Source of the DNA: Escherichia coli | GTDB lineage: Bacteria; Pseudomonadota; Gammaproteobacteria; Enterobacterales; Enterobacteriaceae | NCBI RefSeq assembly: GCF_011045215.1 | Contig: NZ_CP049201.1 | DNA length: 64,000 nt | Strand: one strand, 5' to 3' | Shown: in pieces, positions 28,104 through 35,958 of the stretch | How positions within the stretch are numbered: position 1 is the stretch's first letter | Layout of the letters: each line of letters begins with the position of its first letter | Notes under the pieces: model-generated | Told to the model about the DNA's origin: nothing | The model's database searches: none | The model's input: the letters and a program-made list of their open reading frames with translations, nothing else | Program-made: the position numbers and the translations under genes

Positions 28104-29065
28104 TGTCCCTGGCGTGGCCATTATTTCGCGTTACGGAACAGGCAGCATTGGCTGCCTGGCCGCAAACCGGATGTGGCGACAAAAATAAAATTGATGGCCT
28201 GGCGGTCACCGCGATGCGCCAGGCATTAAACGACGTCGCTTTTCGTGGACGAGTGGTTATCGGCGAAGGAGAAATTGACCATGCGCCGATGCTGTGGATT
28301 GGCGAAGAGGTGGGCAAAGGCGATGGGCCAGAAGTCGATATCGCGGTTGATCCCATTGAAGGCACGCGGATGGTGGCGATGGGGCAGAGCAATGCGCTGG
28401 CGGTCATGGCTTTCGCCCCTCGAGATAGCCTGTTACATGCGCCTGATATGTATATGAAAAAGCTGGTTGTTAATCGACTGGCTGCCGGGGCGATTGATCT
28501 GTCTTTGCCTCTGGCGGACAACTTGCGTAACGTGGCGCGGGCGTTAGGTAAACCGCTGGACAAGCTGCGCATGGTTACGCTGGATAAACCGCGTCTGAGT
28601 GCCGCGATTGAGGAAGCAACACAGCTGGGGGTGAAAGTTTTTGCCCTGCCGGATGGCGATGTCGCCGCCAGCGTGCTGACCTGCTGGCAGGATAATCCTT
28701 ACGACGTGATGTACACCATCGGCGGCGCGCCGGAAGGCGTGATTTCTGCCTGTGCAGTCAAAGCGTTAGGCGGAGATATGCAGGCGGAATTAATCGATTT
28801 TTGTCAGGCTAAAGGGGATTACACGGAGAATCGGCAGATTGCAGAGCAGGAACGCAAGCGTTGCAAGGCAATGGGCGTTGACGTTAACCGTGTGTACTCG
28901 CTCGACGAACTGGTGAGGGGGAACGATATCCTCTTTAGCGCTACGGGCGTCACGGGCGGCGAGCTGGTGAACGGTATCCAACAGACGGCGAATGGGGTGC
29001 GGACGCAGACATTACTGATCGGCGGCGCGGACCAAACGTGTAATATAATAGACTCCCTGCATTGA
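28100..29065 (+). CDS. yggF: Class II (GlpX-type) fructose-1,6-bisphosphatase homologue
   Basis: 321 aa; GlpX-like sequence; start overlaps yggP stop. Confidence 0.8.
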   Translation: MMSLAWPLFRVTEQAALAAWPQTGCGDKNKIDGLAVTAMRQALNDVAFRGRVVIGEGEIDHAPMLWIGEEVGKGDGPEVDIAVDPIEGTRMVAMGQSNALAVMAFAPRDSLLHAPDMYMKKLVVNRLAAGAIDLSLPLADNLRNVARALGKPLDKLRMVTLDKPRLSAAIEEATQLGVKVFALPDGDVAASVLTCWQDNPYDVMYTIGGAPEGVISACAVKALGGDMQAELIDFCQAKGDYTENRQIAEQERKRCKAMGVDVNRVYSLDELVRGNDILFSATGVTGGELVNGIQQTANGVRTQTLLIGGADQTCNIIDSLH

Positions 29066-29086
29066 TGGTGATCTATCGGAAGACCA

Positions 29087-29596
29087 ATGGCGACGCTGAC
29101 AGAAGATGATGTGCTTGAGCAACTGGATGCACAGGACAATTTATTTTCATTTATGAAAACTGCGCATTCTATTTTGCTCCAGGGAATACGCCAGTTTCTG
29201 CCGTCGCTGTTTGTCGATAACGATGAAGAGATCGTGGAATATGCAGTGAAGCCGTTACTTGCCCAAAGCGGCCCGCTTGACGATATTGATGTTGCGCTGC
29301 GTTTGATTTATGCGCTGGGGAAAATGGATAAATGGCTGTACGCCGATATCACTCATTTTTCCCAGTTCTGGCATTACCTGAACGAACAGGATGAAGCGCC
29401 CGGATTTGCCGATGACATGACCTGGGATTTTATCAGCAACGTCAATAGCATAACCCGCAATGCGATGCTCTATGACGCGTTAAAAGCGATGAAGTTCGCT
29501 GATTTCGCCGTCTGGTCAGAGGCGCGTTTTAGCGGGATGGTCAAAACGGCGCTGACGCTGGCAGTAACGACCACCTTAAAGGAATTAACGCCGTGA
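29087..29596 (+). CDS. yggD: MtlR-like small protein (YggD/FumE)
   Basis: 169 aa, MATLTEDDVLEQLDAQDNLFSFMKTAHSILLQGIRQF. Confidence 0.7.
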   Translation: MATLTEDDVLEQLDAQDNLFSFMKTAHSILLQGIRQFLPSLFVDNDEEIVEYAVKPLLAQSGPLDDIDVALRLIYALGKMDKWLYADITHFSQFWHYLNEQDEAPGFADDMTWDFISNVNSITRNAMLYDALKAMKFADFAVWSEARFSGMVKTALTLAVTTTLKELTP

Positions 29597-30306
29597 AAAT
29601 TGAATTAACGGTGAATGGGCTGAACGTGCAAGCGCAGTACCATGAGGAAGAGATAAAACGCGTGCATAAACCGTTGCTGCGCATGTTGGCGGCCTTACAG
29701 ACGGTAAATCCGCAGCGGCGAACCGTGGTTTTTCTTTGCGCTCCGCCGGGAACGGGAAAATCGACCCTGACTACCTTCTGGGAATATCTCGCGCAACAAG
29801 ACCCCGAACTGCCCGCTATCCAGACGCTCCCGATGGATGGTTTTCACCATTACAATAGCTGGCTGGATGCGCATCAGCTACGCCCGTACAAAGGCGCGCC
29901 GCAGACATTTGATGTGGCAAAACTGGCAGAAAAATTGCGCCAGGCAGTGCAGGGCGACTGTACGTGGCCGCAGTACGATCGACAAAAACATGATCCGGTA
30001 GAAGATGCGTTGCATGTTACCGCACCAATAATCATCGTCGAAGGAAACTGGCTATTGCTGGATGACGAGAAGTGGCGCCAGCTTGCGCAATTTTGTGATT
30101 TCTCGATCTTTATTAACGCGCCCGCAGCGGCGTTGCGGGAGCGTCTGGTGGGGCGCAAGCTGGCGGGAGGGTTATCGCTGGCAGACGCAGAAGCTTTTTA
30201 TGACCGTACCGACGGGCCGAATGTTCGCCGGGTGCTGGAAGAGAGTCTGCCTGCAAATTTGACCTTAATGATGACCGCTACGGGTGAATATCGTCTGGTG
30301 GATTAA
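29593..30306 (+). CDS. yggC: P-loop nucleoside/pantothenate kinase-like protein YggC
   Basis: 237 aa; Walker A APPGTGKST. Confidence 0.8.
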   Translation: MKIELTVNGLNVQAQYHEEEIKRVHKPLLRMLAALQTVNPQRRTVVFLCAPPGTGKSTLTTFWEYLAQQDPELPAIQTLPMDGFHHYNSWLDAHQLRPYKGAPQTFDVAKLAEKLRQAVQGDCTWPQYDRQKHDPVEDALHVTAPIIIVEGNWLLLDDEKWRQLAQFCDFSIFINAPAAALRERLVGRKLAGGLSLADAEAFYDRTDGPNVRRVLEESLPANLTLMMTATGEYRLVD

Positions 30307-30955
30307 TGTTCCTGATTAGACCATCTTCCAGTCGCACCACACGAGAGAAATGACGCCGGGTAAATGCGGCGTCATGACTGATTGCTACGACGCTCGTGCC
30401 TCGCTGGCGGCACTTCTCCAGCCAGCTTTCAAACACGCTCAACCAATTTTCGTCAAAATCCCGACTCGGCTCGTCCAGCAGCAATAGTGGCGGAGAGAGT
30501 GCTTCCAGGCAGGCGACGGCGACCATCCGTCGCTGCGCACTATGCAGATCCAACGGGTGCGCGCTGGCAGTGTCTGCTAACTGACAACATTGCAGGGCAG
30601 CATGGGTACGTTGAGTGATTTCATCCGCCGGGCATTTTTGCAGTTTCAAACCAAATGCGATCTCGTCAGCGACGGTGCTGTGAAAAAGTTGGTTTTCCGC
30701 TTCCTGAAACAGTACGCCAATCTTTGCCGCGCGCTGGCGGTTTTTCAGGTTTTTCATCGCCTGTTGTTGCCGCATAACCGTACCGGCTGTGGGCGTAAGA
30801 AGACCTGCCATTACTCGTAACAGCGTCGATTTCCCTGCGCCATTGTCACCGGTCAGCGCCAACCATTCACCTTGTTTGAGTTGCAGAGAAATGTCGCAAA
30901 GACAATCCGTTGCCGCGCCAGGCCAGCGATAAGATATCTGATTTAACGTTAACAT
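30278..30955 (-). CDS. ABC-type ATPase (EcfA-like) with degenerate signature motif
   Basis: Walker A GDNGAGKST, Walker B LLLLDEP, but signature region reads LHSAQRRM instead of LSGGQ; start chosen at MLTLNQISYRW; 3' end overlaps yggC 3' end by 29 bp. Confidence 0.7.
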   Translation of the reverse strand: MLTLNQISYRWPGAATDCLCDISLQLKQGEWLALTGDNGAGKSTLLRVMAGLLTPTAGTVMRQQQAMKNLKNRQRAAKIGVLFQEAENQLFHSTVADEIAFGLKLQKCPADEITQRTHAALQCCQLADTASAHPLDLHSAQRRMVAVACLEALSPPLLLLDEPSRDFDENWLSVFESWLEKCRQRGTSVVAISHDAAFTRRHFSRVVRLEDGLIRNINPPDDIHP

Positions 30956-31632
30956 AGTGGCTGGAGCGCTCCGTTTTGCAATTGCCACGCTTGCTGGCAG
31001 TAGTTCAGGAAAGGTGTGCGATGACGTTCAAAAAGAATAATCAGCGAACCACGTTCAAACGCCCAGTGTTGTAATCGCTGCAACAGCATTTCGCTGGCCT
31101 GCGGCGTCAGGCGGCTAAAGGCTTCATCAAGAATTAATAGCTTTGGCTGCATCGCGATGGCGCAGGCGATGACCACGCGCTGTGTCTCTCCACCGGAGAG
31201 TGTTGCTGGGTGACGATGGCGCAACGGCTGGCACTCGGTCAGAGTCAGGGCGGCATCAATCCGCGCCATAATCTCTGCTTCAGCAAGACACAGATTTTCT
31301 GGCCCAAAGGCAACTTCTTCTTCCACGCTAAAGGTACAGCCGGAGAGCTGCAAATAGGGCGATTGCTGGACGAGCTGGATGGTGGCGGATTGTTCATTAA
31401 GCGGGAGATGCCCAATGGGCGTACCGAGGAGCGTCCCCGTGCCTGTTATCTCTCCTGGCAGAAAGTCCGGATACCAGCCCGCCATCAGCTGTGCCAGCGT
31501 ACTTTTGCCACTGCCGTTGTCACCAAAGATGGCGACCATCCCCGGTTTGACATAGTGAAAGTTATAACAGAACGGAGGATGCGTTGAGTGTGTCGGGCAA
31601 TAACGGAACTGTTCTAACGTAACCATATCCAC
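30949..31632 (-). CDS. ABC-type ATPase (EcfA-like), canonical motifs
   Basis: Walker A GDNGSGKST, signature LSGGETQRV, Walker B LLILDEA; start uncertain by a few codons. Confidence 0.75.
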   Translation of the reverse strand: MDMVTLEQFRYCPTHSTHPPFCYNFHYVKPGMVAIFGDNGSGKSTLAQLMAGWYPDFLPGEITGTGTLLGTPIGHLPLNEQSATIQLVQQSPYLQLSGCTFSVEEEVAFGPENLCLAEAEIMARIDAALTLTECQPLRHRHPATLSGGETQRVVIACAIAMQPKLLILDEAFSRLTPQASEMLLQRLQHWAFERGSLIILFERHRTPFLNYCQQAWQLQNGALQPLC

Positions 31633-32321
31633 GCTCCGAATTCTGTCAGCATCAGCAAGATCATGGTGTAACGCGCTACGCGTTGTAGGGTGCTATCGGC
31701 TGGTGCCCACAACGTTGTTCGTCGGTTGTGGATCCGAAATGCCCGCATATCCAGCGCCGCACCGCGGACAGCAAGATCGTTTAGCGCATTGTGTGTTAGC
31801 GGAATAATTAACGCGGGCATCGCACGTAAACGCTGATACCAGCCCTCATCCAGCGGCACGCCGCGGGCACGCTGCGCTTCATGAATAATCGCTAATTGCC
31901 GTTTTAACTGCTCAACGACCAATAACGGACCGGCAAACAGATAAGCGACGCCTGGCGGCAGGCGAGAAGCAAACAGAGCGCGGATAAAACATTGCACGGG
32001 GACGTACTGCATCCACAACTGTGAGGTTGAAACAATCGCCAGAATCCGCAACCAGAGCGTAATAGCATGCGTCCAACGCTCCGGCGAACGCGGCGTGCCG
32101 CTTAGCCATTCTGTTAGCCAGCCACCGTGTACCAGCCACAGCCCGGCTCCCAGCGAGAACATCAGCCAGACGACATATTTTGCCCGCCGCCGCGTGGCCT
32201 TTAGCGCAATAAGGCAGAAAAAGGTCGCCGCGCTATAGACTGGCAGTATTGTCTGTGTGGGCAGGATAAGCGTGGTGCAGGCCGCCAATGCCCATAGTGT
32301 TAATGAGGTAAATGGATGCAT
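31614..32321 (-). CDS. ECF transporter T component (EcfT/CbiQ-like)
   Basis: 235-aa multi-TM protein with two Ala-Arg-Gly-type coupling motifs (EAQRARGVP and DLAVRGAAL) in the C-terminal half; directly upstream of two ABC ATPase genes. Confidence 0.65.
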   Translation of the reverse strand: MHPFTSLTLWALAACTTLILPTQTILPVYSAATFFCLIALKATRRRAKYVVWLMFSLGAGLWLVHGGWLTEWLSGTPRSPERWTHAITLWLRILAIVSTSQLWMQYVPVQCFIRALFASRLPPGVAYLFAGPLLVVEQLKRQLAIIHEAQRARGVPLDEGWYQRLRAMPALIIPLTHNALNDLAVRGAALDMRAFRIHNRRTTLWAPADSTLQRVARYTMILLMLTEFGAWIWLR

Positions 32322-32900
32322 TTAGCGCACGGCAGCCATTGCCGGAAAATGGCGCGTGGTGCGAATCGGCAGCTGGCGCAGTAAAAGCCAGACAATCACC
32401 GCTGTAAGAGTTTTATCGACCAGGTTCGCGCCTATCACTGTAATTGCCACCGACTCCACCAGGTTTTGCCCCATCGAGTGCATCCAGGCAACGAACAAAT
32501 CGGCTCCGCTACCGGTGACACCGCCGAACAGCGCAGTACGCAGCGGTACAGCGACGACCGTTACCGCAAGCGTAATAATCACGCCGCTGACAACGACTTT
32601 TGGCAGGGTGCGGAACCAACCCGCTCGCGCCAGCCAACCAGCGACCAGGCCGATGACCATCGCCACGGGCGCAAATGCGGCGGCGATCGGGTCGGTCAGC
32701 AATCCCCAGAGTAAATTGGTCAGTAAGCCGGTCAGCATCCCGATCACCGGACCAAGCAGTACCGCGCTAATAAGTGTGCCGATGGAGTCGAGAAATATAG
32801 GTAATTTGACCATGCTGGCCAGTTGCCCGCCGATCATATTGATGGCGATAGATATAACGATCAACACCAGTGCCTGACTGGAAAAGTGGCTACGCGCCAT
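32322..32900 (-). CDS. Small integral membrane protein, probable ECF substrate-specific (S) component
   Basis: ~192 aa from MARSHFSSQALVLIVISIAIN (ORF-track upstream extension would overlap the PPC gene); 5-6 predicted TM segments; position directly upstream of T component. Confidence 0.5.
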   Translation of the reverse strand: MARSHFSSQALVLIVISIAINMIGGQLASMVKLPIFLDSIGTLISAVLLGPVIGMLTGLLTNLLWGLLTDPIAAAFAPVAMVIGLVAGWLARAGWFRTLPKVVVSGVIITLAVTVVAVPLRTALFGGVTGSGADLFVAWMHSMGQNLVESVAITVIGANLVDKTLTAVIVWLLLRQLPIRTTRHFPAMAAVR

Positions 32901-32922
32901 AAGAAAACCTCTCTGAAAGTAG

Positions 32923-33354
32923 TTATTTAACGGGGGAAATATGCAACTCGTCGTAACCAGAAAGCGCGCAAGGTTGGCGGCTAAACGCCAGTTCCTCAAG
33001 GCTACCGATCACCAGTTCAAGCGTGGTCCGCACGGTACAGCCGGGCATCATATGACCGCCAAGCATCGTGCCGTGTGGATCGGAAACGCAGAGATGAAGA
33101 TGCTCACCACTCTGTTCCAACGTGCCGTTTAGTGAGATCACTTCGAATGTACCGTTCAGGAGCGTGGTGCCTTCTTGCCCGGCATAGCGCAAGGCGATGT
33201 CAGTCAGGCTACCGGTACAGCCTGCAATCCAGGCGGCATGAAGTTGCTGCTGCTGTGCAAAAGCGTGTAGCTGGGAAAAAACTTCCTGCCCGGGGAGGAG
33301 GCGCAGTGCGTAAAAGCGTGCGGAGGAAGAATATGGGTAGGGCAATGTCATCAT
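32923..33354 (-). CDS. PPC/DUF296-domain protein
   Basis: 143 aa; pattern G.FEV.SLNGTL....HLH......G...GGH...GC.V....E.V resembles the PPC (plants-and-prokaryotes conserved, DUF296) fold; first gene of the operon. Confidence 0.6.
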   Translation of the reverse strand: MMTLPYPYSSSARFYALRLLPGQEVFSQLHAFAQQQQLHAAWIAGCTGSLTDIALRYAGQEGTTLLNGTFEVISLNGTLEQSGEHLHLCVSDPHGTMLGGHMMPGCTVRTTLELVIGSLEELAFSRQPCALSGYDELHISPVK

Positions 33355-33588
33355 TGGAGTACTCCGAAACTCGGACGTATTGCGGATAATATCGACGCTG
33401 CATCAGTCATATTCTGATATAAGTCAGGGTTTGTGACGGCACAACGAAAAGATTTTGCTACGCTTATTCGTGATTCTGCAAAGTGGAATAAATTCCACAG
33501 GGGCGGGGCTGAAAACGTGACGTAAGTCAGATATTTGTTTTCTTTGACTGGACAATCATTCCTTTTATTCCACGTTTCGCTTATCCTA

Positions 33589-33603
33589 GCTGAAGCGTTT
33601 CAG
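33589..33603. promoter_or_regulatory. Candidate Cra (FruR)-type operator upstream of epd
   Basis: gctgaagcgtttcag palindrome (TGAA-N6-TTCA core) ~125 bp upstream of epd start. Confidence 0.35.
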
Positions 33604-33725
33604 TCGATTAAATGTTCGACAATTAACCAATCAGTCGCAGTTTGCGACAGGTAAGGTTTCCCCGGACGATTTGCTGGATTACTCTGTCTGGCAAATTTGC
33701 TCAGGGAAAACCTTGCAGGAGATCT

Positions 33726-34745
33726 ATGACCGTACGCGTAGCGATAAATGGCTTCGGTCGCATCGGGCGTAATGTGGTTCGTGCTTTGTATGAATCCGGA
33801 CGCCGGGCGGAAATTACCGTGGTGGCAATCAACGAACTGGCGGATGCTGCGGGCATGGCGCATTTGTTGAAATATGACACCAGCCATGGCCGTTTTGCAT
33901 GGGAAGTACGACAGGAACGCGATCAACTTTTTGTTGGTGATGACGCCATCCGCGTATTGCATGAACGTTCACTGCAATCGCTCCCCTGGCGTGAACTTGG
34001 CGTTGATGTAGTCCTCGACTGCACCGGCGTATATGGCTCCCGCGAGCATGGCGAAGCGCATATTGCCGCCGGGGCCAAAAAAGTGCTCTTTTCACATCCT
34101 GGCAGTAACGATCTCGACGCGACCGTTGTTTACGGCGTCAATCAGGATCAACTTCGTGCGGAACACCGCATCGTTTCTAACGCTTCCTGTACCACGAATT
34201 GCATAATTCCCGTCATCAAATTGTTAGATGATGCGTACGGTATTGAGTCCGGCACTGTGACCACAATTCACTCCGCCATGCACGATCAACAGGTTATTGA
34301 TGCATACCATCCTGACCTGCGTCGCACCCGGGCAGCCAGCCAGTCGATCATTCCGGTCGATACTAAACTGGCCGCCGGTATCACACGATTTTTTCCGCAA
34401 TTTAACGATCGCTTTGAAGCGATTGCGGTACGTGTGCCAACCATAAATGTGACGGCAATCGATTTAAGCGTGACGGTGAAGAAACCTGTAAAAGCCAATG
34501 AAGTCAACCTGTTGCTGCAAAAAGCAGCACAAGGTGCATTTCATGGTATAGTTGACTATACGGAATTGCCGTTGGTCTCTGTAGATTTTAACCACGATCC
34601 ACACAGTGCCATTGTCGATGGCACCCAAACCCGGGTCAGTGGCGCACACCTGATCAAAACGTTGGTCTGGTGCGATAACGAATGGGGCTTTGCTAACCGA
34701 ATGCTCGACACGACGTTAGCTATGGCTACTGTTGCTTTCAGGTAA
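33726..34745 (+). CDS. epd: D-erythrose-4-phosphate dehydrogenase
   Basis: Start at [27 protein letters not shown] (339 aa); GAPDH family with active-site SNASCTTNC. Confidence 0.93.
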
Positions 34746-34794
34746 GACGCAAGCAGCGTCTGCAAAACTTTTAGAATCAACGAGAGGATTCACC

Positions 34795-35958
34795 ATGTCT
34801 GTAATTAAGATGACCGATCTGGATCTTGCTGGGAAACGTGTATTTATCCGTGCGGATCTGAACGTACCAGTAAAAGACGGGAAAGTAACCAGCGACGCGC
34901 GTATCCGTGCTTCTCTGCCGACCATCGAACTGGCCCTGAAACAAGGCGCAAAAGTGATGGTAACTTCCCACCTGGGTCGTCCTACCGAAGGCGAGTACAA
35001 CGAAGAATTCTCTCTTCTGCCGGTTGTTAACTACCTGAAAGACAAACTGTCTAACCCGGTTCGTCTGGTTAAAGATTACCTCGACGGCGTTGACGTTGCT
35101 GAAGGTGAACTGGTTGTTCTGGAAAACGTTCGCTTCAACAAAGGCGAGAAGAAAGACGACGAAACCCTGTCCAAAAAATACGCTGCACTGTGTGACGTGT
35201 TCGTAATGGACGCATTCGGTACTGCTCACCGCGCGCAGGCTTCTACTCACGGTATCGGTAAATTCGCTGACGTTGCGTGCGCAGGCCCGCTGCTGGCAGC
35301 TGAACTGGACGCGCTGGGTAAAGCACTGAAAGAACCTGCTCGCCCGATGGTGGCTATCGTTGGTGGTTCTAAAGTATCTACCAAACTGACCGTTCTGGAC
35401 TCCCTGTCTAAAATCGCTGACCAGCTGATTGTTGGTGGTGGTATCGCTAACACCTTTATCGCGGCACAAGGCCACGATGTGGGTAAATCCCTGTACGAAG
35501 CTGACCTGGTTGACGAAGCAAAACGTCTGCTGACCACCTGCAACATCCCGGTTCCGTCTGATGTTCGCGTAGCAACCGAGTTCTCTGAAACCGCTCCGGC
35601 TACCCTGAAATCTGTTAACGATGTGAAAGCTGACGAGCAGATCCTGGATATCGGTGATGCTTCCGCTCAGGAACTGGCTGAAATCCTGAAGAATGCGAAA
35701 ACCATTCTGTGGAACGGTCCGGTTGGCGTGTTCGAATTCCCGAACTTCCGCAAAGGTACTGAAATCGTGGCTAACGCTATCGCAGACAGCGAAGCGTTCT
35801 CCATCGCTGGCGGCGGCGACACTCTGGCAGCAATCGACCTGTTCGGCATTGCTGACAAAATCTCCTACATCTCCACTGGCGGCGGCGCATTCCTCGAATT
35901 CGTGGAAGGTAAAGTACTGCCTGCAGTAGCGATGCTCGAAGAGCGCGCTAAGAAGTAA
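34795..35958 (+). CDS. pgk: Phosphoglycerate kinase
   Basis: Start at [25 protein letters not shown] (387 aa). Confidence 0.95.

Follow-up and report, generated by a model that had tools for sequence, protein, structure and literature searches.

We describe here a five-gene locus of Escherichia coli that lies between yggC and epd in a 64,000-nucleotide stretch of contig NZ_CP049201.1 (RefSeq assembly GCF_011045215.1), hereafter the window, and whose first gene, lmiA, encodes a PPC-domain protein. The explanation that we favour, with moderate confidence, is that the five genes constitute one operon for a group I energy-coupling-factor (ECF) importer of a nucleoside- or nucleobase-like micronutrient, with the LmiA protein as its cytosolic partner. 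Three points are new: the PPC gene is linked to the ECF genes across phyla, this transporter is a sister of ECF operons that process nucleosides, and a protein that has been published as a transcription factor has an enzyme-like fold. The locus itself is not new: it is O-island 119 (OI-119) of enterohaemorrhagic E. coli (EHEC) O157:H7, already catalogued, and it includes a gene that has been published as an EHEC virulence regulator, so that we do not claim the discovery of an island.

Relatives of the S component were collected by comparing the E. coli protein with protein representatives clustered at 50% identity, after which an alignment of nine S proteins was scanned over one genome per species, yielding 80 loci. 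All ORFs (open reading frames) of these loci were searched by jackhmmer with the five proteins of the operon and the gap lengths were then measured. Where the S protein was at least 49% identical, a PPC gene stood on the same strand and no more than 150 nt upstream of the S gene in 63 of 66 loci, with gaps of -19 to 119 nt; the exceptions were a locus truncated 147 nt before the S gene, a gap of 154 nt and an in-frame PPC-S ORF. With the latter two added, the PPC gene is directly upstream of the S gene in 65 of the 65 assessable loci, and an adjacent PPC gene was found in none of the 14 loci with S proteins below 49% identity. The PPC-ECF loci belong to the Gamma-, Beta-, Alpha- and Deltaproteobacteria, the Synergistota and the Chloroflexota. 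Within the Enterobacterales they range from Escherichia to Proteus, Providencia, Morganella, Hafnia and Budvicia, and the other taxa are Aeromonas, Wohlfahrtiimonas, Laribacter and another betaproteobacterium, Rhizobium, Mesorhizobium, Brucella, Kaistia, Paracoccus, Desulfobulbaceae, Synergistaceae and many Anaerolineae and Ardenticatenaceae. Judged by this gene order, lmiA appears to be an evolutionarily fixed partner gene of this ECF clade across several phyla. In the searchable literature we found no description of a PPC-domain protein as the partner of an ECF transporter. An earlier reading of the window from its letters alone (the sequence-only reading) had suspected such an undescribed partnership and proposed to look for co-occurrence of the PPC gene with the transporter genes; the linkage is real, is kept across phyla and is wider than that reading supposed.

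In Citrobacter sp. R56 (locus L067, 9302..10579) the PPC and S proteins are encoded in one ORF of 425 aa with the linker NPSPGKRFF. This ORF may have arisen by natural gene fusion, by loss of a stop codon or through an error in sequencing, and a fusion would be topologically feasible if the N-terminus of the S protein is cytoplasmic. PPC-S fusions, which would count as Rosetta-stone evidence, were absent from the 13 longest of 150 representatives; these long S proteins comprised S-T fusions, tandem S proteins, S-histidine-kinase fusions and proteins with extra transmembrane helices. A DsrE-family protein of about 116 aa with a CxTC motif, equivalent to the C-terminal half of YedF, a protein of selenium metabolism, is encoded in 11 PPC-ECF operons (L040, L042, L047, L050, L052, L059, L060, L061, L064, L068 and L069), where its gene stands directly before the PPC gene or directly after the second ATPase gene and gives rise to six-gene operons in Chloroflexi and a betaproteobacterium. 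One Brucella locus adjoins a YedE/TsuA-like gene, and DUF296-glutaredoxin fusions are on record (PMC2679010). The DsrE-like proteins and these fusions hint at a sulfur relay.

The five genes are consecutive ORFs on the minus strand that occupy 30278..33354 (Table 1). Their packed, co-directional arrangement was described correctly by the sequence-only reading, and hidden Markov model searches (PF03479, PF12822, CbiQ and the ECF_ATPase models) upheld all five of its domain and family calls. The PPC and S genes are 22 nt apart and the S and T genes 0 nt apart; on the RefSeq starts, which are inner ATGs of the longest ATPase ORFs (30949..31632 and 30278..30988), the T gene overlaps the first ATPase gene by 13 nt and the latter overlaps the second by 7 nt. 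Consensus scans of the operon interior gave no promoter or terminator signals above shuffle expectation. As the genes are spaced by at most 22 nt or overlap and no internal signal rises above shuffles, lmiA-ecfS-ecfT-ecfA-ecfA' is predicted to be a single operon, the 3' end of which overlaps the 3' end of the convergent yggC by 29 nt. RefSeq annotates the products as a PPC domain-containing DNA-binding protein, an ECF transporter S component, an ECF T component and two ABC ATPases, and a gene for a periplasmic substrate-binding protein was not found among the operon ORFs.

The operon is predicted to encode a dedicated (group I) ECF-type ABC importer, and the evidence for this comes from each of its components. 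An AlphaFold2 model of the S component (predicted local distance difference test score 94) retrieved solved ECF S components as its best 17 matches in a Foldseek search of the PDB, with probabilities of 0.93-1.0 and with RibU, FolT, ThiT, PanT, BioY and HmpT among them, so that the structure prediction suggested by the sequence-only reading places the protein where that reading had put it. The NCBIfam model NF045596 ('CD3073 family putative ECF S component') is its best family match, at 135 bits (134.9) against a curated cut-off of 180, and 10 relatives from both the PPC-linked and the hydrolase-linked groups (see below) score 101-151 bits, all under the cut-off. By these scores the E. coli protein belongs to a sister family of the CD3073 family and not to that family itself. 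Diverse family representatives share polar residues in the membrane, of which N21 and D162 do not vary while D38, T42 and K163 are at least 90% conserved; this is consistent with a common substrate scaffold.

For the T component the match to CbiQ is weak in E. coli, but 15 of 21 aligned orthologues match the same model (PF02361), the best with an E-value of 8e-33. The first coupling motif is AQRARG, in which R153 and G154 are invariant in the orthologue alignment, and the second is ALDMRAF (R193 and F195), which aligns with ALExRGF of the orthologues; both motifs are conserved. The sequence-only reading was right about the first of these motifs and misassigned the second to DLAVRG, seven residues too early; that string holds R186, a separate and nearly invariant arginine. 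Both ATPases have the ECF_ATPase_1/2 models as their best NCBIfam matches, though below the equivalog cut-offs. When the motifs were compared over the 64 loci with two separate ATPases, the signature of the first was canonical (LSGG[E/Q]; LSGGE in E. coli) in all 64 and that of the second was degenerate throughout (E. coli has LHSAQ; other loci have, for example, LNAGQ, LTPTW or LGYSE), an asymmetry that covers both the PPC-linked and the hydrolase-linked clades and that points to one catalytic and one non-canonical ATP site.

Like the group I ECF importers BioMNY, CbiMNQO, YkoEDC and QrtTUVW, the operon combines S, T and two ATPase genes of its own, lacks a periplasmic binding protein and encodes an S protein with the expected fold and a T protein with the coupling motifs. 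It differs from them in the addition of a fifth conserved gene, for a cytosolic PPC protein, in first position, in the family-wide degeneracy of the signature motif of the second ATPase and in the shortness of the enterobacterial ATPases (225 aa). The resemblance to CD3073/CD3072 (NF045596/NF045597) of Clostridioides difficile lies in the family match of the S protein and in the operon of a relative (L084) that has an above-cut-off CD3072-type desulfidase after the ATPases, whereas in E. coli the score of the S protein stays under the family cut-off and the operon has no desulfidase. A match to CbiM or NikM, or an extra small membrane ORF of the CbiN/NikN kind, was found in the operon neither in the ORF list nor with NCBIfam and Pfam; the view of the sequence-only reading that this is not a familiar cobalt or nickel system was thus sustained, and such a system was ruled out.

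LmiA belongs to the PPC/DUF296 family by both its domain match (PF03479) and its fold, and matches PDB entry 2HX0 with an E-value of 7e-75. We compared it with the PPC/DUF296 proteins PH0802, 2HX0 and VCA0587 and with the alpha-acetolactate decarboxylase (ALDC) fold. The PPC fold resembles the zinc-dependent ALDC, and its nearest non-PPC folds are zinc enzymes and not DNA binders. PPC proteins are not known to have ALDC-like activity. Residues H85, H87, H101 and E113 are invariant in 45 ECF-linked LmiA orthologues, and the paper on LmiA itself marks these histidines as a probable zinc site (PMC7667037). All 45 orthologues are acidic, with isoelectric points of 4.8-6.9. PPC is the sole Pfam match, and neither a helix-turn-helix, an AT-hook or another DNA-binding motif was found in LmiA, so that neither the recognisable motif nor the basic surface of a DNA-binding transcription factor is present; the plant AHL factors, in comparison, bind DNA through an AT-hook that LmiA lacks. 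The published 17-bp LmiA motif has no match in the whole window, including the lmiA promoter, at up to 3 mismatches, and autoregulation through this motif was ruled out on that ground.

The indications of a substrate come from the relatives. A nucleoside hydrolase of the inosine-uridine type (RihA-like, 270 bits) is encoded directly upstream of the S gene in 11 loci, 10 of which have S proteins below 49% identity, and three Chloroflexi loci have the order PPC-hydrolase-S-T-A-A'. In a neighbour-joining tree the PPC-linked and hydrolase-linked S proteins form sister clades. The operon of a metagenomic relative carries genes for a LacI regulator and a ribokinase (PfkB), three nucleoside hydrolases, S-T-A-A' and a major facilitator superfamily protein. 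The operon of another metagenomic relative (L084) ends in a gene that scores 141 bits, above the cut-off of 130, for NF045597, 'CD3072 family TudS-related putative desulfidase', a family named for the gene beside CD3073, the namesake of the S family. In four Anaerolineales loci of the hydrolase-linked kind there is, in addition, a QPTR/YhhQ gene close by (TIGR00697, 111 bits with the cut-off at 51). In the queK-qrtT-queL queuosine module of C. difficile the PF12822 S protein QrtT stands beside QueK, a queuosine hydrolase of the same hydrolase family (PMC11130926, PMC11477304). On account of these hydrolase, ribokinase and desulfidase operons, the queK-qrtT case and the shared polar residues, we tentatively infer that the substrate is a nucleoside- or nucleobase-type compound, a proposal that, for the class as a whole, we hold at somewhat less than even confidence.

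No known riboswitch was detected by an Rfam E-value scan of 29000..35000, the search that the sequence-only reading had recommended for the identification of the substrate; seven distant loci gave nothing at the gathering threshold and a Chloroflexi leader gave a chance miRNA match only. In five loci (L042, L044, L052, L059 and L069), about 140 nt upstream of the PPC gene, a hairpin that resembles a terminator and has a U-tract precedes a second hairpin, immediately in front of the PPC gene, that sequesters the Shine-Dalgarno sequence (GCCTCC...GGAGGC). This pair of hairpins is common to Ardenticatenaceae and Anaerolineae loci and has no Rfam match; it could be an unrecognised leader or riboswitch, or the terminator of the upstream gene.

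Taken together, the mechanism that we propose for the E. coli operon is as follows. The small S protein would bind its substrate at the outer face of the membrane and topple within the T scaffold, and transport would be powered by the asymmetric ATPase pair with one canonical and one degenerate ATP site. The substrate would most likely be a nucleoside- or nucleobase-like micronutrient, possibly sulfur-modified, and LmiA, located in the cytosol, would convert or sense the imported compound through its three-histidine metal site. The partner genes in the sister operons encode substrate-processing enzymes (hydrolase and desulfidase), and the circumstantial hints fit a metal-dependent enzyme or a ligand-handling protein, possibly with thiol chemistry. 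Because these hints are circumstantial and two papers report specific DNA binding, we commit only to a conserved cytosolic partner that may either convert or sense what is imported.

Several observations weigh against this explanation. The E. coli S protein falls under the NF045596 cut-off. The nucleoside assignment is taken from sister clades at 40-45% identity, the specificity of which may differ, and the E. coli cargo is deduced from relatives, with no riboswitch and no adjacent catabolic or salvage enzyme in Enterobacteriaceae. LmiA-like PPC genes may also occur away from ECF genes, for example VCA0587 of Vibrio cholerae; in our profile search for PPC contexts, the best 120 matches were close enterobacterial relatives only. 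Deletion of z4268-z4271 was without effect on adherence or on expression of the enterocyte effacement locus (LEE) (PMC7667037), and specific direct binding of LmiA to DNA has been reported from electrophoretic mobility shift assays (EMSA), chromatin immunoprecipitation with quantitative PCR (ChIP-qPCR) and footprinting (PMC7667037, PMC11657066).

The PhoP control and the LmiA phenotypes are the work of others, and it is from these that the most serious alternative arises. Liu et al. (mBio, 2020) reported that PhoP binds the lmiA promoter and that LmiA activates ler, with a 17-bp binding site for LmiA in the LEE1 promoter (PMC7667037), and LmiA was subsequently reported to activate gadA/gadBC, with 169 genes affected in RNA sequencing (PMC11657066). 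LmiA could hence be purely a DNA-binding protein, the ligand-responsive regulator of its own operon that EHEC recruited for LEE1 and gad, with no catalytic or chaperone role. EMSA, competition, DNase footprinting, ChIP-qPCR and reporter data on LEE1 (PMC7667037), and the same types of data on gadA/gadBC (PMC11657066), speak for this, as do the RefSeq/COG name 'DNA-binding protein', a UniRef entry named 'putative regulator of transporter operon' and a conserved palindrome in the lmiA leader that could be an operator. However, the absence of any DNA-binding motif beside the PPC domain, the acidity of every orthologue, the zinc enzymes among the nearest folds and the lack of the 17-bp motif at the protein's own promoter speak against such a role, and local regulators rarely hold a fixed, co-directional first-gene position across phyla as LmiA does; on balance we consider a purely regulatory LmiA unlikely, while giving it real weight. 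A bolder form of the partner hypothesis is that LmiA is primarily a zinc-dependent enzyme, with an ALDC-like fold and a His3/Glu site, that forms a functional unit with the ECF importer, the two together serving to salvage or detoxify modified nucleobases or nucleosides. The most attractive cargo would then be thiolated or selenated pyrimidines from tRNA turnover in the gut, and LmiA would be a non-Fe-S counterpart of the TudS desulfidases with a DsrE/YedF-like or glutaredoxin thiol partner in some phyla; what has been reported for LEE, gad and biofilm genes would stem from metabolism or from secondary moonlighting. The reported DNA binding speaks more for a regulator than for an enzyme. We rate this proposal as slightly less probable again than the regulatory one.

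ECF-type importers of metals, such as CbiMNQO and NikMNQO, do exist, and the operon might accordingly import Mg2+, Zn2+, Co2+ or Ni2+ upon induction by PhoPQ at low Mg2+, with LmiA as a cytosolic metallochaperone. The PhoP-dependent induction at low Mg2+ (PMC7667037) and the invariant His85/His87/His101 site would suit a metal importer, but the S protein belongs to PF12822/NF045596 and not to CbiM/NikM, a CbiN/NikN-like gene is lacking, the closest structures are vitamin-type S components (RibU, FolT and ThiT) and the sister clades stand in nucleoside hydrolase, ribokinase or desulfidase operons; we regard this as the least probable of the alternatives. Salvage of queuosine, queuine or preQ by a QrtTUVW-like importer, in which case the hydrolase-linked relatives would be QueK-QrtT modules, is almost as improbable. 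E. coli makes queuosine de novo, and this counts against such an importer here. The C. difficile precedent of QrtT beside QueK (PMC11130926, PMC11477304) is matched in the sister clade by its gene context of a PF12822 S protein beside a nucleoside hydrolase, and the QPTR/YhhQ-family gene adjoins hydrolase-linked relatives in four Anaerolineales genomes. The window, however, has neither hydrolase, QueL nor preQ1 riboswitch, and the riboswitch was not seen in the seven distant loci either, nor a QueL-like gene in the loci with annotated neighbours. The linkage to a hydrolase is limited to the sister clade. Moreover, an operon with three hydrolases and a ribokinase looks catabolic, unlike micronutrient salvage, and the link to a TudS-related desulfidase points to thiolated pyrimidines.

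The sequence-only reading had regarded the locus as an uncharacterized accessory operon inserted between yggC and epd. This view did not survive comparison: the same five genes occupy the same yggC-epd position in OI-119, the published PhoP box and transcription start site (TSS) map onto the window exactly, RefSeq already annotates the operon as ECF, and functional characterization in reference strains exists in part, by way of lmiA (PMC7667037, PMC11657066). Compared with an O157:H7 strain, LmiA (143 of 143 residues) and the S protein are 100% identical, the T protein 98.7% and both ATPases 99.6%. The accessory status itself and the adjacency of yggC and epd in K-12 were borne out, as the whole segment was found by megablast in 3318 of 5426 complete E. 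coli genomes (61%), including O157:H7 and O103, and yggC adjoins epd in the remainder, including K-12 derivatives. The operon stands at the same site, divergent from epd, in E. albertii, Citrobacter, Klebsiella, Atlantibacter, Pseudescherichia, Superficieibacter and Phytobacter, and in Salmonella it is convergent on yggC as in the window, where the locus retrieved begins at the S gene and has the epd side outside it. The other flank in enterobacteria is either a cmt-yggC cluster or tkt, and since tkt takes the place of the cluster in half of the enterobacterial loci, yggC was ruled out as a functional partner. The base composition of the operon is not foreign. Given its wide occurrence in E. 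coli and its common site across genera, it is most parsimonious to regard the operon as ancestral in the Enterobacteriaceae and K-12-type E. coli as having probably lost it or undergone allelic replacement, which differs from an insertion and also from the horizontal acquisition stated in the LmiA papers.

The segment without a K-12-type counterpart takes in the last ~65 nt of the window yggC allele, which are unrelated to the end of the K-12-type yggC. The yggC gene (29593..30306) is about 84% identical between the haplotypes (versus L002), whereas glpX, fumE, epd and pgk are 96-99.9% identical; versus O157:H7, yggC is 93% identical and its neighbours about 97% or more. This suggests either an old, recombining two-allele polymorphism of yggC that is tied to the presence or absence of the island, or a recombinational replacement.

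Table 1. Coordinates of the operon genes, the island segment and the elements of the lmiA promoter and leader in the window.
Feature	Position	Strand	Details
Segment without K-12-type counterpart (O-island proper)	30238..33504		blastn of K-12-type junction against the window
PPC gene (lmiA), operon gene 1	32923..33354	-	143 aa; Pfam PF03479, E = 4e-28
S component (ecfS)	32322..32900	-	192 aa; PF12822, E = 8e-8; NF045596, E = 2e-39
T component (ecfT)	31614..32321	-	235 aa; CbiQ PF02361, E = 3e-4
First ABC ATPase, EcfA-like	30949..31626	-	225 aa from RefSeq start; TIGR04520, E = 7.5e-35
Second ABC ATPase, EcfA'-like	30278..30955	-	225 aa from RefSeq start; TIGR04521, E = 6.6e-43
Published PhoP box of lmiA promoter, GACTTACGTCACGTTTT	33512..33528	-	one exact match in the window, none in shuffles
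Published lmiA TSS	33444	-	a T; 90 nt upstream of the ATG; mapped from PMC7667037
-10 element of published lmiA promoter, TAGCAAAAT	33448..33456	-	mapped from PMC7667037
14-bp palindrome in lmiA leader, CTGACTTATATCAG	33414..33427	-	consensus CTGAyTTATATCAG; FNR/CRP-like TGAy-N4-rTCA core; candidate operator
TAnnAT hexamer	33386..33391	-	22 nt downstream of the palindrome; conserved in alignment
Hairpin, UCCGAGUUUCGGA	33363..33375	-	5 bp; contains the Shine-Dalgarno GGAG of lmiA; conserved in alignment

The lmiA promoter is reported to be PhoP-activated at low Mg2+ in EHEC, and the PhoP box lies in the window at exactly the published -84..-68 from the TSS (PMC7667037). The TGA...TCA core of the palindrome, the hexamer and the hairpin are common to nine aligned Enterobacteriaceae genera and all fall inside the 90-nt leader of the published TSS. 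RNAalifold showed a compensatory change from A-U to G-C in the Shine-Dalgarno hairpin in two of 11 sequences (Superficieibacter), which is weak evidence. The leader elements could represent a second, activator-dependent promoter, or an operator together with a translational hairpin. A second start near 33378 is possible; measured from it, the centre of the palindrome would fall near -42, the class II position. The TGAT-N4-ATCA core is FNR-like.

Within 33512..33531 the PhoP box also overlaps a CRP-like site, TCTGA-N6-TCACG, that is kept in K-12, which lacks lmiA, in a form nearer to the consensus (TCTGA-N6-TCACA). This site is upstream of a Cra box (CTGAAGCGTTTCAG, 33589..33604) and about 75 bp from it. 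Since epd-pgk-fbaA is activated by CRP and repressed by Cra at the TSS (PMC5888115), it may be the divergent epd promoter to which the PhoP-box/CRP-like sequence primarily belongs.

Among the relatives of the S component, S-like domains are fused N-terminally to histidine kinases in two proteins (P0211, of 569 aa, and P0218, of 935 aa, which also has receiver domains), which suggests that the S fold has been reused as a membrane ligand sensor. The metagenome contig of another relative (L087, relative P0129) has three paralogous S genes around one fused double-ATPase gene of 684 aa, and appears to resemble an arrangement of multiple S components on one shared energising module.

In conclusion, the gene of an EHEC virulence regulator holds a fixed first position in an ECF operon in six or more major lineages, and LEE is missing from most of these. 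Bacterial PPC/DUF296 proteins occur widely and their structures have been determined several times with no function assigned; the linkage gives them a concrete context. ECF systems are considered rare in Proteobacteria, and the present operon points to a family of ECF importers that may serve nucleoside-type compounds in this group; K-12 is naturally without it. The finding reframes how low-Mg2+/PhoP signalling, nutrient import and virulence expression may be connected in EHEC and enteropathogenic E. coli.

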